Both the position numbers and the translations under genes were made by a program. From Paecilomyces variotii (lineage: Eukaryota), in the NCBI GenBank assembly GCA_004022145.1, contig RCNU01000013.1: a stretch of DNA of 64,000 nucleotides. One strand, 5' to 3'. A model generated the notes under the pieces. That model saw nothing but the letters and a program-made list of their open reading frames with translations. It made no database searches and was not told the origin of the DNA. Shown one piece after another: positions 9,762 to 40,182 of this stretch. Position 1 is the first letter of the stretch. The number at the start of each line of letters is the position of its first letter.

Positions 9762-11056
9762 ATGATCCTTTCTAAGACGCTTCTAGCCGTTCTATTGACG
9801 GTCACCAGCCATCTAGCTGGTGCCGTACCCACTGTTCAATCTCGTCAGAATGCCAGAAGTTACAACTTGCCTCTGACGTGGAATTCGTACGGTTTCTTAT
9901 CCCAAATCTCTGTGGGAACACCTCCCCAGAAGCTCCCTGTCTTTGTCGACTGGACATGGGTTGGGCAATACCTCCTCACGACTTTGTGCCATGGCAATTC
10001 AAGTAACACGTACGACTGTCTCGCTACGCAGCAACCCTTGTTCAACCAGTCATTGTCTTCGTCATTCCGCAACCTCACCTCTCGGTACGGGGACCTGTCC
10101 TGGGACCCGAACCACTTCTTCTTCTGGAAGCCCTTGACTGTCGATATCAGTTCCGACATTGTCACCGTTGGTCCTAGCAGCACACGCATGATCATTCAAG
10201 CTGCAGACTTCCAGTTCAATGAGACAGCAGCCGCTTTCCCATTCGCTGGAGTCTATGGACTGTCTCCAGTTTTCAAAACCGACAACAGTATGTTCTATGC
10301 TCATCTTCATGCTAGTGATATGACACTAACATTCTCCACGCAGAAACTACAGAATCCCCATTCTACCAAGCCTGGCGCGCAGGAGATTGGCCTGAGCCAT
10401 ACGTTGCTTTCCACTATTGCTACAATGGCTCTGTGGATACCAACAAGACCACTTGTGGCGGCCATGATGGTCTCCAGACACTTGGCGGTTACAACTCTAG
10501 ACTCGTCAAGGGCAGCGTGACATGGTACGATGTCATCCAATTCCCAGAAGTTAACGTGGTCGATTTCGTCTACAACCCCGCTCTATTGGAATACTGGGCC
10601 GTTGGCCTCACTCAATTCAGCATCGGCGACGAGGTGCAGCCATTGAACACCACAGTTGGATCTGCTGCCGTCTTTGACCATGCCAGTTACGGACGTGGTG
10701 CTCCCATGTCCGTCAACGCGTACCAGAAGCTAATCAACCTCAGCGGTGCTACGCCAATCAAGCTCGACTCGCCTCCCAACAATGGTAACCAGTCGTGGTA
10801 CCAGATCGACTGCAACAAAACCCAGTCGCTCCCCCCTCTGAAGTACCAATTCTCGGGATCAAGTAAGGTCTGGGAGATTATTCCATCTAACTATGTTGAG
10901 AAGCTCGACAATGGCGTCTGCGTTCTCAACGTTCGGACCCTTGGTGACGGTGATTGGGTTATTGGCAATTTTGGAGAGACCTTCTCCAAGGACAAGTACG
11001 TTATCTTCGACTTTGAGAAGCTGAAGGTTGGTCTGGCGGACCTTAACTGGAGATGA
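9762..11056 (+). CDS. Secreted pepsin-fold (peptidase A1) protein with non-canonical catalytic motifs (PynH-like); intron ~10289-10343
   Basis: Signal peptide; ISVGTPPQKLPVFVD, GVYGLSP, YQIDC, VIGNFGETF..KYVIFDFEKLKVGLA; DTG/DSG motifs read DWT and DHA. Confidence 0.85.
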
Positions 11057-11735
11057 AGGTGGAATTGTGTTTTCTTCTACGTGTGGTTTTCTTAACTATT
11101 GGTGACATGTATGAGAAAAGACAAGATTGATGTATTCTTTGTTGCATAGATGAATTTTATATAGAATCTTATAGACGGCATATGAGCATACAATATACGC
11201 AGTATATTTCGCCTGATGGTATTTAGTCAGACTCCTGTTTGCGAATTGTGTACTAGGGTTTCTAAGATATTTTACTAGAATATATATTTACTGCGGAGTA
11301 GACACTTCACTAAATAATAAACCCCGTTATTTGTCGGCGTACAAAGCAAACGCCAGGTGATCTGCAATCAACCGTTACACCAGGTTCCCGCATGGAATTG
11401 GATCGAACCTACTGGATTCTCTGTATGCTAGAGATAAATATGGGGTCAAATCCCCCCCTAGACCTAGAGTCAAGCAAGCAATTCAGATTCTGCTTCCGTG
11501 CTGTTTAGGATTCGACATTATTACTGTTTGCAGAAATTCAGCGTACAAAGAAGTCTGTAAGTGATCTAACATATCATCCATTTGCAGAATGTTCTCTGAT
11601 ATCCTAATTAGAGGATAGAACCTGCTAGAGATCGCTAGGATGTAGATTCCTTGTTATCTCAAGAGGAAGCGCAGAATCTCGGATTTTTTCCTATTCGTAT
11701 TCCACTAGATATTCCCTTTCAGCCAGCTGACTAGC

Positions 11736-11854
11736 ACATACGACCATAGGGTGTGGAAAACAGGGCTTCCCGTCCGCTCAGCCGTACTTAAGCCACACGC
11801 CGGCAGGTTAGTAGTTGGGTGGGTGACCACCAGCGAATCCCTGCTGTTGTATGT
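11736..11854 (+). rRNA. 5S rRNA gene (dispersed copy)
   Basis: 119 nt ACATACGACCATAGGG...CCCGTCCGCTCAGCCGTACTTAAGCC...TTAGTAGTTGGGTGGGTGACCACCAGCGAATCCC...TTGTATGT with complementary ends; followed by a T-run. Confidence 0.96.
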
Positions 11855-11869
11855 TTTTATTTTTTTTTT
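11855..11869 (+). terminator. RNA polymerase III oligo-T terminator of the 5S gene
   Basis: TTTTATTTTTTTTTT directly after the 5S 3' end. Confidence 0.8.
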
Positions 11870-11885
11870 GCTGCAAAAGCAAGCA

Positions 11886-14800
11886 TTATTTAGATAGTAG
11901 ATGCTGATAGCCATCTGCCTTTGCGAGTTCAATCAGCCCATTGAGTTCCGGTCCAAAGTGGACCTGAAATGTTGCAAGGAGATCGGTGACAGCATAACTC
12001 GGTTGTGATAGCCCAGTCACGGCCTGCTCAATTGTTGGAATGTCCTTTGGCCAACGGTCTTTCTTTTTATATCCAATCTCAAATAATCCATAACGGTGTA
12101 AACGGCAGCGGCCCTCGCTCAAAACCCAGGAGCACGGGAGAACCAGTGCAGCACCTCTGTTAATCATCATCCTAAGCGCCATAAGGTATGCTTCCTTATT
12201 GGTGGCGGAAGTATGAAAACCCCTCTGCAACCATTCTGCTACTGAGGAAAGAAAGAGTGCCCAGACAGAGACGCCTTGATAGAGACCGTTAGGGTCCGCT
12301 CCAAAAGTAAGAACCCGGTGCAGAAGGTCGATGTTGGGGACTTGGCTACCGATATTTAGGAATTGTTCTGTTGCGAACCTTGGCCGGAGAATATAATCTA
12401 AGATCGGACGACCTTTTTTGGCTTGGACTTGGTCTTCAGTGAGATATGCCATGCAGTAAGCCCGCATGTCGAAGTCGATTGCCAGTGTGAGAAAATTGCT
12501 TTTTTCCTCCTGCCAACTAGCCAGCACGAAGTCAATGTACCAGCCCGGAGAAGACGCTACATCATAGCATGAGAAGGCCTCGATAGCTGGCTGGAGTATA
12601 CGTGCAGCTCTGATGGATACTGCTGCTTCTTTCCATTCGGGAACTGAAAGAGCACTAACAAGATAGCTTGCTATCCCTAAGGAGATACTGCGGCCGCATT
12701 CGATATTTTGTAGCGCTAGAAACTGTGATATCCTGGCATTAATGATCAACATTCTCGCGTCGTATCGGCCCCCAGTATATTGGTGGAGTAGACTCTGGAT
12801 GTGTGGGAAAAGGAGAAAGTCCCGGCAACACCGATGGAAAAAGTCGACTGTAAGCATGAAGGGGCGAAGTAAAGTGGGGCTATCAAAGACATGTGAGTAT
12901 ATTGACGGCTCAAATTTCCGGCCTTGATAGAGCGAAGTATCCTGGAATTCTTCTGTGGACTCTTCATCAAATAAGTCAAAGAAACTGTCAGGGTTGTATG
13001 TGCATTCAAGTAGGCCCATGCATCGACTGTTGAGCCGCCTAATGGTTGAGTCTAGGCGAAACCTCAATGCTTCACGGTCATTAATGGAGATTTTGTCATG
13101 CTTGAAGGAGTCTGCTAGTGCGAAATCAGGGCTCGATTCGTCGGTGAACGACAAGTCAAGTAAACGGAGAGGATGTAGCGCGACAAAGTCGTGTTCTTCA
13201 TGTAATGCAGTCTGCAGGATGATAGACGCTTCTCGCATGTGCTGAGGGTCAATTGAGGAAAACAAGTGTTTGAAATAGTCATTCAAGTCGGCGGGTATTT
13301 CTTCGAGCTTCCGGTACAAAGTGCGAATGCCATCTCCATCCCGCATTGCTTTGAGCAAATCGCGAACCACAAGCCGTACCCATAAAAAAACTCCCTCGGC
13401 CTTGTCTGTGACCGCGAATATAAGCGCTTCTGCAGCCTTCTGATCACAACGAAGCAGATATTGGAATCGTGGATTGTTGAGGAAATTTGCCCGAACATAC
13501 AGGTCGATATCGTCTCGCGTGAGATCCTCCAGTCGTATCTTAGGAATATCGCTGAAACTGTCTTGGAAGATATTCCAAGGCCTGCTTGATAGAAATATCT
13601 TCACATTCCCTGTGCAGGCTAATCTTTTGAATATTGCAATAAGCTCTTGACGGATCTCATCCGTGCCTTCGTACTGGGGATGATAACTCGTATGATTTCG
13701 GGAAAATCGGCGTGCACTGCGTGGTCATTGTAACATTGCCTACAATGGGCTCAGTGAAAGCGTCAAGCGCTTCTCAGTCCCTCAAAATGAGTTTCAGCTC
13801 TATCAAACTTGCCTTGCTTGTTGGTATTTGCGGTGCGGTCCCATTCAAGAAAGATGGGTCCGAAATTGTACTCGGAGATGTTATCATCAGTGAGACGATT
13901 GTTGAGTTAGACTACGGGCGGCAGTACCACGGTAGCTTCGAACGCAAGGATTCAGTACTTGACGTACACGGTCGACCAAACGAAGAAATACTTGGGCTTT
14001 TGCAGCGCTGGAAAATTCCAGCCATTCTCGAAACCTTACGGCATGGACCCATGGGGCATCTGAGATATTTGCTGCAACGCCTGAATATGGACTATCCGGG
14101 CGCGAGTCAAGACATGCTTTTCCAATCTGATTACATACATAAACATCGTGGACACTGCATGGGATGCAGTGACACTGCAGGGACTGTATGCAAATCCGCT
14201 CTCACCGCATCATGCAGCGATACCCTGTGCGATGAGAGACAATTAGTCACTCGATATCGGTTGGAGGAGGCCGCTAACTCAGGCAGCAAAATCCCGGATC
14301 TTAGTATACATATCGGGTCCATTGGTACTGGGAACGCCGTCATAAAGTCAGCTCGGCATAGAGATCAGCATGCACAATCAGAGGGTATCATTGCTTTTGA
14401 GATGGAGGGGGTTGGTGTTTGGGACAAATTTAACTGCCTTGTCATCAAAGGCGTTTGTGACTATGCAGATAGCCATAAAAGCAAGGTCTGGCAGGATTAT
14501 GCGGCTGCTTCTGCCGCCGCGGTTGCAAAAGAGGTTTTGAAGCAATATGTGATGCCACAAAAGCTGCCACAGAAAACGATTCCCAACGGTGAGCCCCCAT
14601 GGCAGACTTCTAAGTATTCGACTAATTGGAAACAGACTCGGTTCGGGAGCTCTTTTCCCCCTCCAGACAAGACAGTTTCCGAGATGTTCACAGTTTTCAT
14701 ATGTTGACACCAAGATATTCCTTTGATAGTGCTATCAATGATCTTGAGGAACACTCTGTAAAAGATCCGTATAACAGACACGCTCAGCAACGAATTTTAG

Positions 14801-15471
14801 CCAGTCTCCAGTTTCCCCAAATGCAAGAACGCGCACAGAAGATTGAAGCAGCCCACGAGCAAACATATGAGTGGGTTCTACGATCCCAGGACAAAAATGT
14901 GCACACGTGGGATGACCTGGTCACATGGCTGTCGTCGAGCACCGAAACAAGATGGATTTACTGGATATCCGGTAAACCTGGGTCCGGGAAGTCTACTCTA
15001 ATGAAGTTTTTGGGAGAGAGGCTTGATGTCCAAGAACACATGCTCCCATGGGCTCAGGGCTGCTCTGTAATCCGGGCGTCTTACTTCTCTTGGAGCCCGG
15101 GGAATGTACTACAAAAATCTTTGGAAGGTCTTCTGCGTTCTTTGTTGTTGCAAATTCTTAAACAGAAACCGGGTCTGATGTCAGAGGTAATTGATGATAT
15201 GAGATGGAGCGCCGCGCAAATGCCTTCAACCACGCTAGCTGATTGGAACAACTTGGAACTATTTTCTTCTCTTCAAAGGTGCATTTTTAGTCTACAGAAT
15301 GTCTTCATCAGAGTTCTGTTCTTTGTTGATGGGCTCGACGTAGTAATGGCGGCAATCATGCCATATCTCATCCATGGCACAGAGAACAGCGTTGGTTTCG
15401 CGGGGTAGCGCACATATTATCGCTATTTCGAAGCCATCACGGCTCAGCGGACGGTATTGAGAGTTGTTCAT
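11886..15471 (-). pseudogene. PNP_UDP (nucleoside phosphorylase)-NACHT NLR-like gene disrupted by an internal inversion (13676-15340 now on + strand)
   Basis: Minus 15471-15341: MNNSQYRPLSRDGFEIAIICALP (PNP_UDP start). Plus 13676-15340: GDDNSY..LLVGICGAVP..FEMEG..IKGVCDYADSHK, Walker A ISGKPGSGKSTLMK, Walker B FVDGLD. Minus 13675-11886: (E)YEG..KIFLSSRPW..KAEGVFLWV. Confidence 0.9.
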
Positions 15472-15733
15472 AGCAGTAAGCGTAGGCTCGGGGAATCTAT
15501 CCCATATATTCAAGGAACTGGGTATATCCATAAGGTTGAATTGTGTTGACAGCTTATCACTTTCCAAGCAACAGGTCGTGACTTAATCTCGTGCCGAACA
15601 TGTGTTGCTGCAGCAAGCGGGAAGAGTAAAAGAAGACTACTTATTGGCTTGAGCCACGCTGCCCATCGCTACGCTAAGAACAAACTACATACGCTGACCT
15701 CCGAGTTCGCTTGCACTATCCTATTCACTAACA

Positions 15734-17503
15734 ATGGCCAATAATCTGCCATTTGAGCTACTATCTCAAATTGCGGCATATCTACATGCTGATGATTATC
15801 CCCTTGCTGCCTATACCGTTGTTTGCCGGCACTGGCAGACAGCATTCGAATCATTTATTTATTCCAACCTGACCGTGTATAGTGAAACCGTTGAAGATCC
15901 GGAAGCCTACGAAGACAAGATTGAAGTTCACAGCAAATTGCGCGAAATATGGAATACGGCAACGTTCAAGTATCCCTCTAGACCCGCCTGGAGTAGAGAT
16001 GATCAAAACGCGAAGAAATCCAGAAAGCCTCTCTCTCTGTCTCTGTTTACAACTCTCACATCTGGCGCCAACGCCACCCGCCGAGCCTGGATTCGGCACT
16101 TGAAATACAAAGTTGTTGTCCCGTTTCTTATCGAAGATTGGAAGGCAATCAAAGGGCAACACTACAACTACAAGAACCCTACTCGAGAAGAAAATAACAA
16201 GGCATTCCAGTCAGGTGTGATCAGATTATTCGAGATACTGAAGTCCTGGAGCCAAACCCATCGGCTCTCGTTGGAATTAGGTCTGTTTGGACGTGAAGTA
16301 TGTGGAGAGCCGGATACCAACGGGCAATCCCACGCCGGTGATTATGACTGGGATTATACAAACGGGCGTACTACTGCTGTCCAACCCTATAGAGCCCGTT
16401 TCTTGGATGATTCACTGAAGTTTCCAAGCGCCTTATGCGTTGATAGACTCCTTTTCCTGAACGGTGCTGATCGAGAGGGCGGGAATAGAAATCATCGCAT
16501 ATGGGCTAGCACAATATTTGAGATCGTTGTGCACTGTCCTACGCTCACAGAACTGGACCTCGATCTCGACGAATATATTCGTCCAGATCATGAAGGTCTC
16601 ATTAAACAACGTCGTCAAGGTAAGAAGTCCTATATTAATGTTTGTGGTATAATATTTTTATAGCTTGATCTCTGACGTGATTGACACATTTATTTCCCGT
16701 ACCTAGATGTGGCAGAAGGTCTCAAAAGGTTGCCTGATACTTTAAGAGTGTTCAGGTACAAGAATCAGACAGAGTTGAACTGGAAGGAAACCATGCCTGC
16801 TTTGAACGTTTTGCCGCCTTCCGGAACAGACGCACTGTCTATCAACCTGCAGGCCTTGAGCTTCCGTCTTCGAGAATTGAACGTAGAGCAAACTGCACTA
16901 TCGCTCGATTTTCTATGCCCCTTGAATAGAGATTTGAAGCCGATAGGTGACCTATCATCTTTATATTGGCCACACCTCGAAATCTTGAACTTTGAGCTAG
17001 TTCCCCGGTTCACTCCATCAGGTACGTTGATATGTTCTTCTTATTCACCTAGCAAGATCAGCACTCAGAGTTTCGTCAACAAAACAGGTGAATGGTTGTT
17101 TCATTATACGGCGGAGCTTCAAGCTGAAGTTGCAGCAATTGACGATTGGAACGCAGAGATATGCGACTTGGAGAGAGGCTGGTCCTATCGGGAATTGATA
17201 AATTATGATGACTTCCATCGACTATTTGCCTCGATGGGCTATGCGGCACAACGGATGCCGCGTCTTTCCCAGATCAATTTTGTTGGCGATTTTGAATCTG
17301 AAAGCACATTTCACTTTGTCTATGATTCATCTACTGCGGTATTTACCGCCACCTGGGAATCATATTCGGAGTATCAGCCGAATGACCAGGTCGCCAGTGC
17401 CTGGGGCTTCCGGTTGGAGGATACGGAAGATGACGAGATGTCGCGAGACTACGGTGCGATAACATCTACTGTGAGATTCCCTATGTGGCCGCCACATAGG
17501 TAA
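15734..17503 (+). CDS. F-box-like domain protein; introns ~16620-16707 and ~17022-17087
   Basis: N-terminal NNLPFELLSQIAAYL...YTVVCRHWQ F-box-like motif; downstream WPHLE and AAQRMPRL motifs typical of this fungal family. Confidence 0.7.
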
Positions 17504-28377: not shown

Positions 28378-31300
28378 ATGGCGTCTCCAATGTCCCGTGC
28401 CTCTCGCATCTCTCCGACTCCGTCGAACTTCTCTCTGTCTCGCCGGGCATCGGGATCGTCTCTCTCTTCTCCGCCACCAGAGACGGACCCAGCCGTGATT
28501 GTAGGCTTGGCTTGTCGTGTGCCCGGTGCACAGAACCCTAGCCAGCTATGGCAGAACATAGAGGCGCAGAAGGACCTGCGCCAGAAGATGCCGTCCAACC
28601 GGTTCAATGTGGACGCCTTCTATCACCCGGATGGGACCAACAAGGGAACTGTAAGTGGACGTTGGGATATCCAGAGAAGAACCTCTTGCTAACTAGATCT
28701 CAGACCAATGCCAAGTATGGCTACTTCCTGGACCAGGACATTGCCGACTTTGATGCGGGTTTCTTCCACATCTCTGGCAAGGAAGCTGAGGCTATGGACC
28801 CTCAGCAGAGACTACTCCTCGAGGTTGTCTATGAAGCCCTTGAGAATGCTGGCATTACACTAGACGAAATCAACGGCTCACAGACTTCTGTGTTTTGCGG
28901 TTGCTTCACTAACGACTACGACTCCATGACCAACAAGGACCTTGAGTACTACCCCAAGTACACGGTCACAGGAACCGGAAACTCCATCTTGGCCAACCGT
29001 ATCTCCTATTTCTACAACCTCCACGGTCCGAGTGCAACCATTGATACGGCTTGCTCTTCCTCCTTGGTTTGCTTCCATATGGGCACGCAGTCCCTCCGCA
29101 ACAATGAGTGTGACATCTCGATTGTTGTCGGCTCAGCCCTCCACTTCGACCCGAACATCTTCATCACTATGACCGATCTCGGAATGTTATCGGTCAACGG
29201 ACGTTGCGCTACGTTCGATGCATCGGGTAGCGGTTATGTCCGTGGTGAAGGAATCTGCGCCGCTGTCCTGAAGCGCCAGAGTCAGGCCGAGTACCATGGC
29301 GATACCATCAGAGCCGTCGTGCGTGCCTCTGCTACCAACCATGACGGTACGAAGCAGGGAATCACCCTCCCCTCCTCCACAGCTCAGGAGGATTTGATCA
29401 GGAGGGTCTACAGCAATGCTGGCCTCAACCCAGCGGACACTCAGTACTTCGAAGCACACGGAACAGGAACTGCTCGTGGTGACCCAATCGAGACAAGGGC
29501 AATTGGAGCAGTTTTCTCGAAATCTCGCAAGGATCCCTTGTACATCGGTTCTGTTAAGAGCAACATTGGACATCTCGAGGGTGCCTCGGGACTCGCTGGG
29601 ATCATCAAGACTACCATGGCTCTGGAGTCTGGAAAGATCCCTCCGAACATGCACTTCAAGAACCCTAACCCTGAGATCAATTTCGACGAGTGGAAGCTAA
29701 GCGTTCCTCAGTCTATGATTGACTGGCCTGCAACAGAGGGCCTGCGCAGAGCCAGTATCAACTCTTTCGGATACGGAGGTACCAATGCACACATTGTTCT
29801 GGAGGCCTACCAGCCTTCAGTGAGAGCCTCCGTGAGTTCTATTGAGCTGCCAAAGGAGTTCGCACCAATGGTCTCCGGAAGACCTCTGCTTATTCCGCTC
29901 ACCTCCCACTCCGAGAATGCTGGGAAACTGCTGGTCTCCCGCTTCGCCGGCTACCTCCAGGAACACCCAGACCGCAGTGTCTCGGACCTAGCTGTGAGCC
30001 TCTCGTCGCGGCGCTCGCTGCACCAACAGCGCTCCTTCGCAATTGGAAACGACCGAGAGAGTGTATTGGAAAGCCTGAACAACCCGTCTCCGAATGCTAA
30101 GTGGACAGCCGCCAGCAAGGAGAAGCCCAGACTTGGCTTCGTCTTCACCGGACAGGGCGGACAATGGTTCGCAATGGGACGTCAACTAATTCTGCAGTCT
30201 CCGCTCTTTAAGCAGACTCTCGAAAGATGTGATACCGTCTTGCAGCGTCTTCCTGACAGGCCTGATTGGTCTGTTATTGAGGAGCTCTTGCGCTCGAAGG
30301 AAGAGAGTCGCCTCGGACAGACTCGCTTCTCCCAGCCAATTTGCACTGCCCTACAACTGGCTATCCTCGATCTGCTGAAGACATGGAACATCGAGCCCTC
30401 TTCCGTTGTCGGTCACTCGTCTGGTGAAATGGCCACCGCCTACGCTGCTGGAATTCTCTCCTTCGACAATGCCATGATTGCTGCTTACTACAGAGGTTTA
30501 TACATGTCGAACGGAGTCGAAGGCGATTCTGTTGTCCGTGGTTCCATGATGGCAGTTGGACTGACTGAGATGGAAGCGCTCGGAGAACTCAAGTCATACC
30601 AGGGCAAGATCTGTATTGCAGCCGTTAACAGTCCCTCTAGCATGACGCTATCTGGAGACGAGGATGCGATTGTTCAACTCAAGGAGAGCCTCACCGAGAG
30701 GAAGATCTTCGCCCGTCAGCTCCAAGTCGCTCAGGCATTCCATTCCCACCACATGCTCCCTCTTGCTCCTGCCTATGAAAAGGCTCTCAATGGCTGCGAG
30801 GGTTTCACTCCCCAGCCTGCCAAGATTCGCATGTTCTCCAGTGTTACTGCTCGTCTTGCCGACCCGGAAAAGATGGGAGCTGAGTACTGGACTGCCAACA
30901 TGACTGGGGCTGTTCGGTTCTCGGATGCCCTGACCGGTATACTCCTTGATGATGAGGAGGAGAAGAACGTTGACATCCTCGTTGAAATCGGACCTCACCC
31001 TGCCCTCAAGGGTCCGGCCCGGCAGGTCGTGCAGTCTCTGAAGCTTGACATCCCATACGTTGCTTCATTGACTCGTGGCGTCCATGACTACGAAGGGATT
31101 CTTACTACTGCGGGTCAGCTTTTCCAGCTTGGATATCCCGTCAACCTCGAAGCAGTCAACAGCGACCATTTCATCTCGGAGACCGGTTCTATCTACCAGG
31201 TCCCACGAGGCCAGAGACTCCGAGATTTGCCCTCTTACGCTTGGGACCACAAGAGATACTGGTCGGAGACTCGCTTTATCAAGGAGCATCGTCTACGCAG

Positions 31301-34300
31301 TCAGCGTCACTCTGTGCTGGGTGCTGTGGTTCCTGGATCCGTGGCGAAGTACCCGCGCTGGCGCAACTACATCCGCCAGAAGGAGCTCCCGTGGCTGTCT
31401 GACCACGTTGTCGATGGGAAGGTCATTTTCCCAGCAGCAGGCTATATCAGCATGGCCATCGAGGCTGTTGCTAGTACTATCGACCGAAGCCTTGGGTTCA
31501 AAGAGGTCTCCTTGCGAGATGTGGTGGTGAAGTCAGCTTTGATTCTGGACGAGTCCGACGTCGGTTCCGAGATCATACTGGAGCTGCGACCGGCCACTAT
31601 TTCAGCCAAATCGAAGTCTGATGCTTGGTATGAATTCGTTATCTCCTCCTATGATGAGAACCAGAGATGCACTGAGCACTGCTGTGGTCTCATCTCCATT
31701 GAAGCTGGGGCTCCTGCTGCGTTCAAACGCCTTGACATCCATCCTACCTTCAAGGCGCTCCACAAGAAATGCAACGAATGTGTTTCCGCGGACAACTTCT
31801 ATCAGCATCTCTGGGATCTTGGTCTCCAGTATGGCAAGAATTTCTCGCTGTTGACGGGAAATCTCGAGACCGGCCCTGGCTTCGCACTGGGATCTCTCGC
31901 CTTCCAGCCAAGCCAGTACGCTGCTGAACAGGCCGATTTGACTATCATGCACCCGACGTTGCTCGATGCTTCCTTCCATGTCATCTTTGCGGCTATTGAA
32001 TCCATCATCGGTCGGCCACTCGACGAGGCTCTCGTTCCAACCTTTATCCGTTCGTTCAAGATTTCTGGTTCTTTTGCTAAGGTGATGACTGCATCTAGTG
32101 AGCAAAACTTCGAAGTCTGCTCCTTCACGCGTCTTCCCGGACCGCGTGTTGCCATCAGTGACCTGCTGGTCGCTGATAAAGGCAGCGATGAGCCTCTGTT
32201 ACAATTCCAGGGCTTGGAAGTGACGTCTCTTGGCGCAGACAGCAATGAAAACGCCGCTTCTAGGTCACTGTTCTTCCGCACCCGGTGGCAACCAGCTTTC
32301 GATCTCTTGAAATCGGATTCTCCTCTACTCTCCAACCGTGACATCAGTGAGTTAGTGGATATATTCGCCCATCAACACCCGAACAGCGCAATTCTCCACT
32401 TTACCCCAAGTGTGCAGCGTACTCGAGATGTCTTGCGCTCTCTGGGCGGCGACTCGAACGAGCGCAGGCGGTTCAAGTCCATCACCCCTGTTTTCTCACA
32501 GGAACTGCCTAGTGAGGAGCTGGAACTCCTGGCTCAAGAGAGGAGTGGACTCATCGACGTTTCCGAGCCCAAGATTGGCGAATATGACTTGGTTATTGTG
32601 AGCAACGCTGCTCAGTCCGATGTCAGCGCCTTTGTGAGAGAGGGTGGTTATGTTATCACTGACGGCCAGACCATCGATGGAAATGGGTTGACTGCTATTT
32701 TCACTACCGGAGACCTGACGGCCTGGCGCAAGGAAGTCGAGCGTGTTTCCAGCGAGGGCCCACTGACGATTATTCTGCCATCTCGGCCTTCGGAACGCAC
32801 TCTAGATCTCGCTCAACGCATCAAGACCATCTATGGCAACCCGTCCATCTCATGCACGTCGTTCGCTACGCTTGCCAATCAGCCAGCCCGTTCTGAGAAT
32901 GTCATAGTTCTCTCCAATCTCGATGAAGCATTGTTTTTCGATGAGGCGCTAGACAGCCAGCAGACATACAAGGCGGTGCAGAGTCTATTGACCAGCGCAG
33001 GCAAGAACATCGTGTGGGTCTTGGAGAGCGCAACCCTGGAGTCCTCAAAGCCGGAACATGCTATGATTGTCGGTCTCGCGCGAGTTGCTCGCAGTGAAAA
33101 TGACCAGCTCCGGCTCGTAACTCTCGATATGCCTTCTGCTCACCCCAATGACCTCACGGCAAAGCGCGTCATTGAAGTGCTCGACCGCAACCTTGAGGAA
33201 GATGAGATTGCTGAACGCGACGGGTCTCTATTCATTCCTAGAGTGGAAGCGGATGACAGCCTCAACTCTAAGTTGCGCAACGGCGTCAACTCCCAGCCGA
33301 GACTCGAACCACTGGGAAGCAGACCACTTGCTCTCAAGATCGGTAAGGTAGGTCTTCTCGAGACTCTGGTCTTCGAGGAGGATGACGAAATCTTGGACCA
33401 TGAACTCGCGGACGATGAAATCGAAATCGAAGTCAAAGCCTCCGCTATCAACTTCAGAGATATTGCAGCCTCGATGGGTATCATCGAAGACTTCAAGCTC
33501 GGTGATGAATGCTCGGGCGTGGTCCTGCGCGTCGGCTCGAATGTTGATAAGGCAGCCTTTGATGTCGGTGATCGTGTCGTCGCGTGGAGACCTGGCCAGG
33601 GTGCTCACCGTACGATAGTACGCAACCCAGCTTCTCTCTGTTACAAGCTTGGCCCGATGCCATTCGCTGAAGCGGCAGCTCTGCCACTGATTTTGACCAC
33701 AGCTTACTACTCACTTGTGGACACTGCCCGCCTGCAGTCCGGTGAATATGTGCTGATTCACTCGGCTGCTGGTGGTGTCGGGCAGATGGCTGTTCAGATC
33801 GCCCAGATGATCGGAGCCAATGTCATTGCCACTGTCGGATCTCAGGCAAAGCGCGACCTCCTCAAGAGCAAATATGGTCTCAGGGATGAGCAGATCTTTT
33901 CTTCCCGCGATGACAGTTTTGTCCAGGGTGTTATGTCCGTTACCGACGGACGTGGTGTGGACGTCGCCCTTAACAGTCTGGCTGGCAAGCTTCTTCACGC
34001 CACCTGGAGCTGCATGGCCGCGTTTGGTCGATTCATTGAAATCGGAAAGCGTGATATCCATGAGAATACTAAGATCGATATGGACCCTTTCCGGAAGAGC
34101 GTCACCTTTGCTTCAGTGGACCTCATCACTATGTTCGAGCGCAACAAGGTTCTTGGCGCTCGCGTGCTCCAGGATTGCTGCAAGTTGGTTCACGATGGGC
34201 ACATCACTCCTCCGGAGTCTATTGCTGAACTTCCTTACTCCGATGTCATCAAGGCCTTCCGTCTTCTGCAGATGGGCAAGCACACTGGAAAGGTTGTTCT

Positions 34301-37300
34301 TGTTCCGCACAAGGAGGACGTGGTGCCCGTTCGCCCGGCAACCTACCGAAACAAGAAGCTGTTTGACTCTGCGAAGACGTATCTTCTCGTCGGTGGACTG
34401 GGAGGCCTTGGACGTACTCTGGCCGAGTGGATGGTCAGAAAGGGCGCCTGCAAGCTAGCTTTCTTCTCTCGCTCGGGAGCTGAACGAGCGGAAGCCAAGG
34501 CCACGGTCGACTGGCTGCAGGCCAGGGACGTACAGGTTTCCGTATACAAAGGCGATGTTGCAAAATATGCGGACGTTGAGTCTTGCGTCCGATCTATCAG
34601 CAACCTCGGTGGTGTCTTCCAAGCTGCTATGGTCCTCCAGGATGCTCCCTTTGACAGCATGACGCACAAGCAGTGGCAGACCTGCACGCGTCCAAAGGTC
34701 CTCGGAGCCTACAACTTGCACAAGGCGACCTTGCTTCAGCCACTAGACTTTTTCGTTTGCTTCTCATCTGCATCTGGCACTATTGGATCCAAGGGTCAGG
34801 CCAACTACTCATCGGCCAATGCCTATCTCGATGCGCTTATGAGACATCGAAGGGAGATTGGTCTCGCTGGATCCACAATGAACTGTGGTATGATCGTTGG
34901 CGTTGGTGCTGTCGCAGAGAACCAGGCTCTTCAGAAGGTCATGGAGCGGATTGGTTATGATGCAGTCAACAAAGAGGAACTTCTATACCAAATTGAAGAA
35001 GCTGTTACCTCGGACAATTCGTTGAAACTTTCGCCGCGTAATGTCGAACTGCACCAGACCATTACCGGATTGAACCTTTCAAAGAACGACCTCTACTGGT
35101 CTTTCAAGCCCTTGTTCAGGAATCTGTACTCCAACAACGACTTCAACCAGAGCAGTGGTCAGACCGAGGGCAGCAAGAACCTCGCCGTATTGCTCCACAC
35201 CGCAGCTACTGTTGAAGAGCGGACGAGCCTCCTGCTCGACGCCTTCATCGAGAAGATTGCCGCTGTCCTTGCTGTGCCTGCTGACACCATCCAACCGAGC
35301 AACCCGCTGTCTGCGTACGGACTGGACTCGATCGTTGCTGTGGAGTTCCGGAAGTGGTTCGCCAAAACTGTTGGCGTCGACCTTGCGCTTTTCGACGTCC
35401 TTGGAGCCGCATCCATCATTGCCCTGGTCAACAAGGCTGTCGGTCTGATCAAGCTTGATACCTCGTCCAGCAAGGATACTTCTGAAGCCTCTGAAGCTAA
35501 CCCCAAAGCTGAAGACAAGAAGGAAACCGAGTCGACTACATCGCAGGCAGTCAGCGTCATCCCCAAGGCTGACACATCGCTGCCCATTCCGATGTCAACT
35601 TTCCAGAGCAGATTGTGGTTCTTGCACAACTTTTCCGAGGACAAGACATACCTCAACCTCCCTGTTGTCGCATACCTGAAGGGTAAACCAGACAGAGTCG
35701 CCCTGCGAGAGTCTTTGGATGAGATGAAGAGACGCAATCCAATTCTCCGAACATGCTACTTCGAGGGCGATGACTTCGCCGAGCAGATGATTACTGAAGA
35801 CTGCGATTCAAGACTCGGGTTCGAGGACTGCTCAAAGGCTGCAGAGCCTAAGAAGGCACTGGCTAAGGTCTCTGCTCGTTTGAGGGCAACAGAGCTCGAT
35901 ATCGAAGAGGGTGATGTTCTCCGAGTGACGCTGATCGATCTCGGTAATGACGAATACGCTCTTGTGTTCATTTGCCATCACATTGCCATTGATCGTGGTA
36001 GTGCTAAGTCATTCTTGGACCAAATGACTGCTATCTATGACGGCATCAAGACCAAGAAGGATCTTTCGATAATTCCTAAGCCGCAGGTCACTTACTCTGA
36101 CTTCACAGTGTGGCACAATGCATTGATCGCTTCTGCGGCACTCCAGCCCGATATCGCATTCTGGAAGGAGAAGCTAGCCGGCATCCCCAGTGCCAGCAAG
36201 CTTCTGCCTTTTGCCAAGTCTGAGAGACCACTTCACAATGACTACTCTAGATCGACATTTACCGGTACACTGAAGACTGGTCTACTCAACCGTCTGAAGA
36301 GAGTCTGCTCACAATCTGGTGCCACTCCTTTCCAGTTCCTCCTCACGGCTTTCCGCGCATTTTTGTTCCGTTACACTGAAGAGAAAGACCTGACCATCCT
36401 GGTTATTGATGGCAACCGACCTCACCCAGACGTTGAAGATGTTCTCGGTTTCTTCGTCAACATGACCCCTATCCGCTGCCAGGATGACTGCGAGGCCAGG
36501 TTCGACCAACTCTTGGAGACATTCAAGGGTCGCACTCTGGAGGCCATGTCTCACAGTAATGTTCCATTCGACGCTATTGTGGACGTAATGCAGGTGGAGA
36601 AGACTACAAGCCACTTCCCTCTTGGTCAGGTTGTTGTTAACTACCAGATGCACGGAACATTCCCTGTGTACCGCACCCAGGACTACAGCATCCATGACGT
36701 CGAGGCGGAGGACATTCCAAGTGCATGCGAGCTGAACCTCGAGGCCCTCGAAGACCCAGAGAAGGGCTTGAACCTCAGACTCGAGTACTCGACGACTCTC
36801 TACGGGGAGAATGATATGGAGCGCTTCTTTGACAACTTCATGGCCTTCCTGAGCAGCGCGATCAGGGACCACCGGCAGCCAATTGAAGAAATCAAGGCCT
36901 GCGGCCCGAAGGAGACCGAGCTGCTGAAACAGAACTACTGGAATATGAGCTACACTCCTAACCAGTGGAATGATGTGAGCGTCTGCCAGAAGATTCTTGA
37001 GAGCGCGGAAAAGCAGCCAGCTGCCAATGCCATCACGACATCCGACGGTGACAGCATTTCCTACGGTGATCTGGTGGAGCGTGCGCAGAGAATTGCTTTC
37101 TCGCTGAAGCAGTCTGGCATCACTGGCGGACAACGAGTTGGACTTCTGTCAAAGCCCGGCATTGATGCTATCACCGCAATGGTCGGTATCTTGCTCAACC
37201 GCTGCTGCTACGTCTCTCTGGACCCCGAGTTCGCAGTTGACCGACTAGCATTCATCGCCTCCGACTCTAGCTCCGCGACTATTCTATTTCAATCTCCTCT

Positions 37301-40182
37301 CACGTCTTTGGCCACAGACGTGGTTTCGAAGTCTCCCATTTCTCATCAGCTTATGGAGATTGGCGCGGCAGCTTCTGCGCAAGAGAAGCTGCAGGAATAC
37401 ACCTACTCACCAAATGATCCTTTCTACATGATCTACACTTCCGTAAGATCCAGCATCCAATTTCAATGATAAGCGCTAACTGTTTCCATTACAGGGGAGT
37501 ACGGGAAAGCCCAAGGGCGTTCTCCTGACTCAGGCCAACACGCAGCAAATGCTTGCTACGCTGAACACTGATTATCAGTTTACAGCCCAAGACAACTTTC
37601 TCCATCAGTCCTCGATCTGTTTCGATCTCTCGGTCGTTCAGATCTTCTCTGCACTGACTGCCGGTGCCCAGGTCTGCGTTGCAACTGCAGAGACGAGAAA
37701 GGATCCGATTGCTCTCGCTGATTTCATGCGAGATGCATTCGTCTCCGTGACCTACTTTACTCCTACGCAGTTCGCGTTGCTTCTCGAGCACAACAGCGCT
37801 GCTCTGCGGAAGTGCAAGAACTACCGCGTTGCTTACTCCGCTGGTGAACGTCTGCCTGTGCGGGTGGCTAAGGCTTTCTACGATCTCGGAACCCCAGCTA
37901 CTCTGTACAACACCTGGAGTCCTAGCGAGTTGGTTGTGCAGACGTCCATTCAACGTGTTGAATACCCGGCTCCGGACTGCATCAACATCCCCATTGGTCT
38001 CCCCATGGCTAACTGCCGCCACTACGTCCTCGACTCATGCCTAAACCCCTTGCCAGTCGGCTTTATCGGAGAACTGTGTGTCGGAGGAGCTCAAGTCGGC
38101 GCTGGTTACCTTAACCGCCCCGAAGTCAACGCACGCTCTTTCATCAAAGACCCATTCTGCTCTGACGAGGACTGCCAAAGGGGATGGAACAGACTGTTCC
38201 GAACTGGAGACCGCGGACGCTTCCTTCCTGATGGCCGACTCGAATTCCATGGCCGTATCGCCGGTGACAAGCAGATCAAGTTGAGAGGTTTCCGGATCGA
38301 CCTCGGTGAGGTGGAGCAGATGCTCTACCGCGAGTCTTTCACCACTGACGGACAGGGAATTGTCGATATCTCCGTCGTGGCTAGAACAGTCAACGATGAT
38401 GCCTCACTCACCGACGACCGCCAGCTGGTGGCCTATGTGGTGACGAAGCGCCCACTGTCGACACCAGCAGAGAAGGCGCAGTATGCTGCCACTCTGCAGA
38501 GCCGAGTTGAGAAGCATCTGAATGCCTACATGCTTCCCAACGGCTACCAATTCCTGGACAGCCTCCCTGTCACGATTGGAGGAAAGGTCGACCGTCAAAA
38601 TCTTCTCAGCCGCCAGCTGGATCTAACCTACCCTTCTGCAGCGACTGCTCCCACTGAAGCACCTGCAGACTCGAAGCCTCAGGTCAACAACAGTGTCCTC
38701 AATGCTGTTATCAGCCTGTTCAAGAGTGTTCTGAACACTGACCGGGACATCGCAGCGACCGACAACTTCTTCCAGCTTGGTGGTCAGAGCATCCTGCTCC
38801 TCAGACTGCAGTCTAAGGTCAAGCGAACATTCAAGGTGAACCCCAAGTTGCAAGACCTCCTCCGCTCACCTACTCCTCTAGCCATTGCGGAGATTATCTG
38901 CTCTTTGAAGGATGGCTCGACTGGCAGCAAAGCTAGCGCGCCGGCTCAGGAGATCAACTGGGAGGACGAGATCGCCTTGCCCAATGACCGACGCTTCAAT
39001 GTGCCCTATGGAGTGCCACGTGTAAACCGTTCCGATGTGGCTAACGTCCTACTCACCGGTGCCGAGTCGTTCATCGGCATCCACATGCTGGCTACCATCC
39101 TCTCGGCCCGGCCGCAGACTACGGTCTTTGTTCTGGGAACCCACCAGCCGATCCAACACCAAACGCTCAAAGAGACCTTGGAGAAGTTTAAGCTGTTCGG
39201 AGGCGAGATCGACGAGAACGCACTGATCACTCGTACCCGCTGTGTTGAAGGATGCCTAGCCAAGGAGCAATTCGGTCTTACAGACAGCTCCTTTGACTCG
39301 CTCGCCCGCTCGGTGCACTCCATCTACCACCTGGCGTCCGAGGTGTCACTGCTCAAGACGTACCGCGACCTCAAGGCGATCAACACAACCTCCATTCTGA
39401 ACCTCATCCAGCTGGCGCGCCGCGGCGACCACCTCATCGAGATCAACCACCTCTCCACGTGGAGTGTACCGCATCTTCAGGCCTGGAAGGGGACTAAGCG
39501 CACCCGTGAGGGCATTATCACAGCAGAAGAGAGTGCCACACACTTCACCCCGCCGCCTACGAATGAATATGGTTACTTTAAGGCCCGCTGGGCTGCGGAG
39601 ATGCTGCTGACCGAAGCAGCTGAACGGGGCTTTCCTGTGTCGATCTATCGCGCCGCCGCCGCGACAGGAAGTACGGCGACCGGGGTATCGGAGTCTCAGG
39701 ACGACTTCATACGTAGCGTCGTGATGAACATGATTCAGCACAAGCTGATCCCGCAGGTAGACACGTCGCCCGAGTTCGTAATCGATTTCGTGCCGGTCAA
39801 CTACCTGGCGGCAACAATGTACGACATCTCGAGCAACGAGGAGGTGTACCAACCAGGTCTGTCAATTTACCACATTGGAAACAAGCAGCCACTGCATCTG
39901 AACGAGCTGCCGGAGCTGCTGGGGGAGATCCGGGGAGATGGATCCGTGGGACAAGCGATCCCGCTGGTGGAGTGGCTGCGAGTGCTAGCCGAGGGAGCCG
40001 ACGAGAAGGAACAGCTGCGGTGGGCGGTGACAAAGGACTACTTCATGAACGGACATACCATGTTCGCGCTGGACCGCACCAACACGGATGCGGTGCTGGA
40101 CGTGGTCGGTGAGAGTGTGGACTGCCCGAGGATCGACGTGCAGTACCTACGACAGATGTGGCGGGATGGAACCAACGCATAG
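28378..40182 (+). CDS. Hybrid HR-PKS-NRPS, ~3,899 aa (KS-AT-DH-MT0-ER-KR-ACP-C-A-T-R0); exons 28378-28650, 28704-37442, 37495-40182; PynA/PytA-like
   Basis: KS DTACSSS/EAHGTGT/NIGHLE; AT GHSSG, AFHSHH; DH HVVDGKVIFP; ER LIHSAAGGVG; KR GGLGGLG..YSSAN; ACP GLDSIV; C HHIAIDRGS; A YTS^GSTGKPKG, FDLS, FRTGD, GKVDR; T FFQLGGQSI; R-like LLTGAESFIG. Confidence 0.96.

Follow-up and report, generated by a model that had tools for sequence, protein, structure and literature searches.

A small homology-independent inversion has very probably inactivated an NLR-type PNP_UDP-NACHT gene in Paecilomyces variotii

A gene for a NOD-like receptor (NLR)-type protein was found cut into three pieces at positions 11886–15471 of a 64,000-nt stretch of Paecilomyces variotii DNA (GenBank assembly GCA_004022145.1, contig RCNU01000013.1), the whole of which was analysed and is called the window below. 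The two ends of the gene lie on the minus strand and flank a plus-strand middle of 1.67 kb, and we hold it to be very probable that a recent break-and-rejoin inversion, made independently of homology, inactivated what would have been a receptor gene of PNP_UDP-NACHT-ankyrin-like architecture. This account agrees with an original prediction made from the letters of the DNA alone, which had proposed a recent inactivation by end joining, and it is supported by independent sequencing runs that carry the inverted state, by a conspecific strain with the collinear gene, by domains that are cut at the junctions and by pieces that are near-identical to a collinear allele.

The positions of the three pieces given by the original prediction were confirmed to within about 5 nt. 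The N piece (15341–15471, minus strand) holds the start codon and the first 43–44 codons, which encode the beginning of the PNP_UDP domain; the frame of the piece, followed from 15471 down to 15341, opens with ATG, reads MNNSQYRPLSRDGFEIAIICALPRETNAVLCAMDEIWHDCRHY and runs MNNSQ...WHDCRHY, and the native promoter side of the gene is that above 15471. The inverted middle segment (13676–15340, plus strand) encodes the remaining PNP_UDP domain and the NACHT domain via Walker A (GKPGSGKST) to the DGLD of Walker B. It is made up of two plus-strand stop-to-stop frames, 13643–14707 and 14626–15408, which are joined by a spliceosomal intron of 47 nt (14589–14635, plus strand) bounded by GT..AG and containing a CTAAT branch site, and public gene models read ...IPNDSVRELF across this intron. 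The C piece (11886–13675, minus strand) sits in a 612-codon frame with its stop codon at 11886–11888, and encodes what follows Walker B in the nucleotide-binding module (helical lid, winged-helix and DUF7791) and an ankyrin-like tail. The C and middle pieces diverge from junction A (13671–13676), and the middle and N pieces converge at junction B (15339–15341), the boundaries of the middle segment being ambiguous by up to 5 nt at 13671–13675 and by 2 nt at 15339–15340. As stop-to-stop open reading frames (ORFs), all three pieces are free of interrupting stop codons, as had been noticed before, while the intron in the middle piece had gone unmentioned. The inversion also made a chimeric plus-strand frame (13745–15411), which runs MGSVK...FFVDGLD, goes on for 23 residues in the antisense of the N piece and then stops; it equals the public 538-aa protein P0170.

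That the three pieces belong to one gene was evident from their alignment to a single homologue, the 1183-aa protein P0004 of Penicillium palitans. By BLASTP, 39 of 43 residues of the N piece were identical to P0004 residues 1–43, 259 of 306 in the first plus-strand exon to residues 48–353, 181 of 231 in the second exon to residues 362–592, and 440 of 588 in the C piece to residues 593–1178, so that the pieces mapped once each, in order and without overlap, and a contiguous alignment to one homologue was obtained. Conversely, a tblastn search with P0004 against the whole 64 kb returned exactly four matches, with E-values of 1e-21 to 0, which are not due to chance, and no second copy of any gene part in the window; a simple inversion of a single copy, rather than a duplication, is thus indicated. 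When the C piece was used as a query among longer proteins, 54 of 6610 candidates were matched at E ≤ 0.001, most of them having NPHP3_N/NACHT plus DUF7791, with PNP_UDP_1 added in the closest ones.

The arrangement was examined in the assembled contigs of four public runs, X1–X4 (Logan), which had been built without the window as a guide. In X1 (DNA), a single contig of 14,293 nt covered 11840–17500 with 0 differences. X2, a DNA run from another study than X1, gave one contig over 11840–14068 that spans junction A and another over 15137–17500 that spans junction B, again with 0 differences; the depths of these junction contigs were 1498 and 1570, versus 1583–1631 in the flank, and no contig ended at the junctions. 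X3, from a third study, is an RNA run, since GT..AG skips in the neighbouring genes are seen in it alone (10287 to 10344, 16617 to 16705 and 17018 to 17085), and its contigs over 11835–14071 and over 14082–14587 joined to 14635–15647 pass through both junctions. The latter contig, spanning 14082–15647 and covering much of the chimeric frame, is spliced at the intron of the middle piece (record 19, from 14587 to 14635); apart from this one spliced intron, depth and contig ends in X3 carry no information on the strand, start or level of transcripts. The public annotations tell the same: P0168, a 620-aa 'DUF7791 domain-containing protein', equals the C piece (595/595 identical), its first exon, MGPHRKYQQ, being placed at 13818–13844 in the antisense of the inverted segment (six-frame match at minus 13844), and P0170 equals the middle piece (281/281 and 234/234 identical) and continues into the antisense of the N piece as ...FFVDGLDVVMAAIMPYLIHGTENSVGFAG, so that the public annotation reads across junction B. 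Thus, independent DNA and RNA runs both carry the inverted state at both junctions, which contradicts the mis-assembly that the original prediction had left open.

Compared with the window, the conspecific strain X4 has the gene in collinear form on a single contig of 60,946 nt, which aligned in three stretches (minus/plus/minus relative to the window) with opposite-strand joints at 13670/15340 and 13671/15339, the alignment on the side of the N piece running down to 15339. Collinear P. variotii proteins of 1111 or 1123 aa with an uninterrupted FVDGLDEFEG are annotated on 18 contigs (P0001 on 2, P0167 on 7, P0169 on 1, P0171 on 1, P0003 on 4, P0172 on 2 and P0002 on 1), versus 2 contigs with the split products P0168 and P0170, and collinearity across Walker B extends to two partial proteins from Logan assemblies, P0173 and P0175. 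The same order was found in the Penicillium and Aspergillus homologues and in a metagenome contig (L001, 87% identical); the latter is one of four loci returned by a metagenome scan, none of which resembled P. variotii, and was used as the outgroup, while the other three (L002–L004, 43–55%) were left unused. Since the collinear state is shared by conspecifics and other genera, these alignments point to it as the ancestral one and to the inversion as derived and rare. The event is also recent, as had been proposed from the absence of stops, because the nearest collinear allele, P0001, is identical at 593 of 595 residues of the C piece and at 233 of 234 of the NACHT part.

Pfam searches found both N-terminal domains, each truncated at a junction. 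PNP_UDP_1 was matched in the first plus-strand exon with 38.7 bits (cutoff 25.1), from profile position 36 only, and NPHP3_N, a NACHT-type P-loop domain, in the second exon with 66.5 bits (cutoff 24.8), over positions 10–134 of the 164 in the profile and ending at Walker B; from these partial matches, both domains are cut exactly at the junctions. DUF7791 was matched in the C piece with 174 bits. For the 43-aa N piece alone, which is too short, Pfam gave no match, and its identity came from BLASTP instead. As expected of a fungal NLR, the translation holds GKPGSGKST and FFVDGLD of a NACHT domain, here split at Walker B, with PF24883 and PF05729 borne by the collinear homologues, and an N-terminal effector-type domain is given by PNP_UDP_1 together with its missing first part, encoded by the N piece. 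The best explanation for the intact gene is therefore an NLR-like STAND (signal transduction ATPase with numerous domains) NTPase with the order PNP_UDP, NACHT, DUF7791 helical region and ankyrin-like tail.

The C-terminal parts were further characterized by structure prediction. An AlphaFold model of the C piece, made from a 44-sequence alignment, reached a pLDDT of 81.9 and a pTM of 0.82. A Foldseek search of this model against the PDB returned nothing at E ≤ 0.001, and VIA-align matched C-piece residues ~50–128 to lid domains of AAA+/STAND proteins, namely ATAD2 (Z 9.3) and the plant NLRs ZAR1 (Z 7.7) and NRC2 (Z 7.9) over residues 31–303. Residues ~348–595 were matched to many ankyrin-repeat chains at Z 7–9.7, a range that, as the tool warns, may reflect a common repeat arrangement. 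The last 274 residues matched no Pfam repeat family even at E up to 10, a match to HrpB1_HrpK in the same residues (E 0.14) was dismissed as meaningless, and a GADPN motif is visible in the tail sequence. On the strength of the predicted model, the tail is called 'ankyrin-like' here and would be a degenerate repeat domain. The intact protein may have an immune or allorecognition role, and the 'heterokaryon-incompatibility-type' role suggested by the original prediction is a guess from sequence: the HET domain (PF06985) had no match in any of the four coding pieces at E ≤ 0.01 and is present only in remoter homologues.

The junctions themselves were then compared with the collinear alleles. The plus-strand sequence is ...GCCTTCG TACT GGGGATGAT... 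at junction A and ...GGGCTCGACG TAGTAATGG... at junction B. Re-inversion was claimed earlier to restore Walker B exactly, and FVDGLD|EYEG is indeed obtained from the sequence, whereas the conspecific collinear alleles have FVDGLDEFEG, so that there is a one-base difference in the junction codon. Placed on the C side, the 5 nt at 13671–13675 have one mismatch (Y for F), and placed on the middle side they have one or two, and the CG at 15339–15340 fits both sides of junction B. Between the anchors 15341 and 13670, X4 has 1680 nt versus 1670 nt in the window, and X4 also lacks 3 nt at 14263, which leaves the window with a net deficit of 13 nt at the junction zones. In the outgroup L001, the sites corresponding to CATTA.TA and GGGGAT are separated by 13 nt, which code for the last part of Y followed by GKVT, and those corresponding to ..GACG and GA.GGC by 5 nt, both lengths agreeing with X4. 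The other joint, between the N and middle pieces, had been described as either one base short of frame or short of a few codons; it is both at once, as 13 nt are 4 codons plus 1 base, and a re-inversion would therefore leave a frameshift. As to homology at the joints, no long inverted repeat exists, in agreement with the original prediction: the longest inverted matches within 40 nt of the junctions are of 5–6 nt, a length reached in 1872–1972 of 3000 random placements, and among the 25 longest of 168 inverted pairs found none has one arm at each junction. The 4-nt TACT/AGTA microhomology reported before is present, but its length is at chance level, and the overlaps at the junctions are of 2–3 nt (CG at 15339–15340 and ACT at 13673–13675).

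The absence of homology, the 2–3-nt overlaps, the 13-nt loss and the one changed base are together the signature of two breaks that were joined end to end. Starting from one minus-strand gene running from 15471 to 11886, two breaks would have occurred, the first after codon ~44 and the second inside Walker B (DGLD|E), and the 1.67 kb between them would have been rejoined backwards without homology, with 13 nt lost at the joints and one junction codon altered from F to Y. We infer that the repair pathway was end joining of two double-strand breaks. As a consequence, the native promoter would now be followed by 44 codons of the gene and, after them, by the middle segment read in antisense, Walker A (the P-loop) lies on the opposite strand from what remains of the nucleotide-binding module, and, judging from the cut domains, the receptor gene is likely to be 'dead' by loss of function.

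Several points weigh against this account. Evidence based on contigs would drop a minority of molecules in the opposite orientation, and a single isolate, or descendants of it, may be the common source of X1, X2, X3 and both split public proteins, so that their independence covers sequencing and assembly, not biology. The 13-nt figure was obtained from X4 contig coordinates and the outgroup L001, the letters of X4 at the junctions being deduced. Both halves are transcribed, and the plus-strand intron is spliced in the X3 RNA contigs. Finally, ATCTCATCC occurs as a direct repeat of 9 nt at 13654–13662 and 15365–15373, at distances of 13 and 24 nt outward from the junctions, and codes on the minus strand for D-E-I in the C piece and in the N piece alike; a repeat of this length was reached in only 15 of 3000 random placements, in one of five post hoc tests, and the proposed mechanism leaves it unexplained, direct repeats being no explanation of an inversion in general.

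Among other ways to the same structure, the main alternative is a replication error, in which the template was switched at microhomology (by fork stalling and template switching or by microhomology-mediated break-induced replication). The CG and ACT overlaps are compatible with it, and the small loss and the odd base at junction A would fit as well; but nothing is duplicated or triplicated, each gene part being found once by tblastn at flat depth, and the overlaps are of chance length, so we regard this route as unlikely, and computation on one allele cannot separate it from end joining. A quite different proposal, that a collinear genome was mis-assembled, is very unlikely and can be given next to no weight: no positive evidence for it was found, X1 may be the window's source data set, and against it the separate studies behind X2 and X3 reproduce both junctions with 0 differences and a second public annotation, P0170, reads through junction B. 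Equally faint is the prospect of a programmed or reversible inversion by which the receptor gene would be turned off and on, a switch that the original prediction had also left open. An inverted segment bounded inside a gene is what such a switch would show, and minor orientations would be hidden in contigs; this is contradicted by inverted repeats not above chance, by the 13 missing nt that would turn a flip back into a frameshift, by the absence of a recombinase domain in all 23 scanned ORFs (stop-to-stop, at least 180 aa, of the 46 listed in the window), and by X1 and X2 contigs that cross both junctions at single-copy depth in the inverted orientation only.

The remaining rival accepts the inversion and differs in its outcome, namely a gene fission that left two separately expressed genes still acting, alone or together, for instance as a truncated regulator or decoy. 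Their products would be a 538-aa protein with a partial PNP_UDP and half a NACHT domain and a 620-aa protein with the lid, DUF7791 and the ankyrin-like part. The frames are open in both pieces and annotated as genes (P0170 and P0168), RNA contigs lie over both, and the spliced plus-strand intron shows a sense transcript of the middle piece. Against this, the cut within Walker B parts the P-loop from the remaining nucleotide-binding module, the 538-aa frame lacks the first ~72 PNP_UDP residues, intact frames are expected anyway soon after the event, and the contigs show neither strand nor level of the other transcripts. Functional fission is therefore improbable, more so than template switching and less so than a switch or an artefact; if true, it would make the strain a natural 'split NLR' experiment, e.g. 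with a truncated regulator of related NLRs. Inactivation by homology-independent break and rejoining remains the account that we favour.

The alleles of P. variotii fall into three classes with 86–89% amino-acid identity between them, i.e. 11–14% protein difference. A trans-species polymorphism behind these deep classes was considered and found unsupported, as all seven P. variotii rows group together in a single clade (100/100) of a 16-protein tree. The window allele is itself a mosaic: its NACHT part (14638–15339) and C piece (11889–13673) fit class 1 (233/234 and 593/595 to P0001), while its PNP_UDP part (13676–14587) is nearer to class 2, with 278/281 identical to P0172 versus 268/281 to P0001. 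The pattern recurs in X4, where the differences number 4 in the C piece, 28 in the middle piece and 104 beyond 15339. This distribution suggests that the gene was recombined internally long ago, in an event unrelated to the inversion. All annotated collinear P. variotii models (P0001–P0003 and P0167–P0172) start at MGSVK, corresponding to P0004 residue 73, and so omit the first ~72 PNP_UDP residues, though these residues are encoded immediately upstream in the window and in L001 and the N-piece region of X4 has no insertion or deletion compared with the window; this start may have been carried over by habit from the annotation of one genome to the next, or else be a real feature. In the 16-homologue tree, the P. 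variotii clade is sister to Penicillium waksmanii plus P. pancosmium (96/99), within a Penicillium/Aspergillus group, and its proteins are 75–85% identical to that of P. palitans, which is close for different families of Eurotiales. As the backbone of this tree is unresolved and its root arbitrary, the placement may at most hint at a horizontal transfer of the gene.

The NLR gene is surrounded by genes of secondary metabolism. Upstream of it, the window contains genes for an oxidase dependent on flavin adenine dinucleotide (FAD), a major facilitator superfamily (MFS) transporter, a P450, a thioesterase and an aspartyl protease; downstream lie those for an F-box/DUF6546 protein, a FAD monooxygenase, a Zn2Cys6 regulator and a polyketide synthase-nonribosomal peptide synthetase (PKS-NRPS) at 28.5–40.2 kb. 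This PKS-NRPS hybrid (28542–40179, plus strand) has the domain order KS-AT-DH-ER-KR-ACP-C-A-T-R, and a Zn2Cys6 regulator, a FAD monooxygenase, a P450, a thioesterase, an MFS transporter, an aminotransferase and a methyltransferase are found near it; the NLR gene is located at the edge of what is probably a biosynthetic gene cluster. A mobile-element context was not indicated, no Starship captain or recombinase domain being present among the 23 scanned ORFs. On the side of the gene's 3′-end, a complete 5S rRNA gene (11736–11855, plus strand; Rfam RF00001, 84.6 bits) lies 30 nt past the NLR stop codon, and its depth is up to about 120-fold higher in all four runs, as expected of a dispersed multi-copy gene. 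The surrounding stretch at ~11102–11902 is rich in repeats: short contigs with loose ends pile up at 11331–11517 at 10–50 times the depth of the flank, and X4 differs here, with 341 nt skipped and 145 other letters in between. The stretch looks like a repeated element or an insertion hot spot.

The locus offers a clean example of the loss of a fungal NLR-type gene by a small homology-independent inversion, with the ancestral and derived alleles both present in one species. It also corrects the public annotation, in which the 620-aa and 538-aa 'hypothetical proteins' are the halves of one broken gene, and a pair of inverted and collinear strains would provide a natural knock-out for probing the role of the PNP_UDP-NACHT protein. 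In other respects it is an ordinary structural mutation, the kind of event and the kind of gene both being known and the instance being new and well documented; a literature search, covering listings and the openings of abstracts, returned nothing on this locus.

Surveys of fungal NLRs by Dyrka, Daskalov, Saupe and colleagues reportedly describe a class of STAND proteins with N-terminal PNP_UDP and NACHT. The gene shares with these PNP_UDP-NACHT NLRs the order of PNP_UDP_1 followed by NACHT (NPHP3_N/PF05729), here and in its homologues, a putative ankyrin-like C-terminal tail and the high allelic diversity within a species, and differs from them in that the window copy is cut in three and its tail has no Pfam repeat match. 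The HET-domain NACHT relatives (e.g. P0010 and P0012–P0014, with PF06985) have the same core of NPHP3_N/NACHT plus DUF7791 and the same C-terminal region, at 41–49% identity, but carry an N-terminal HET domain where the window gene has PNP_UDP instead. Phase-variation switches driven by invertases, of the Hin, Gin and Fim types, likewise have an inverted DNA segment inside or next to a gene; unlike them, the present locus has no inverted repeats and no recombinase in the 23 ORFs scanned, has lost sequence at its joints and occurs in one orientation in the contigs. Small intragenic inversions by non-homologous or microhomology-mediated end joining, finally, are a well-known kind of mutation, and with its two breakpoints that lack flanking inverted repeats, its 2–3-nt overlaps, 13-nt deletion and changed base, the inversion described here resembles them throughout, being special only in that it struck a polymorphic NLR gene, the halves of which were then annotated as two genes.

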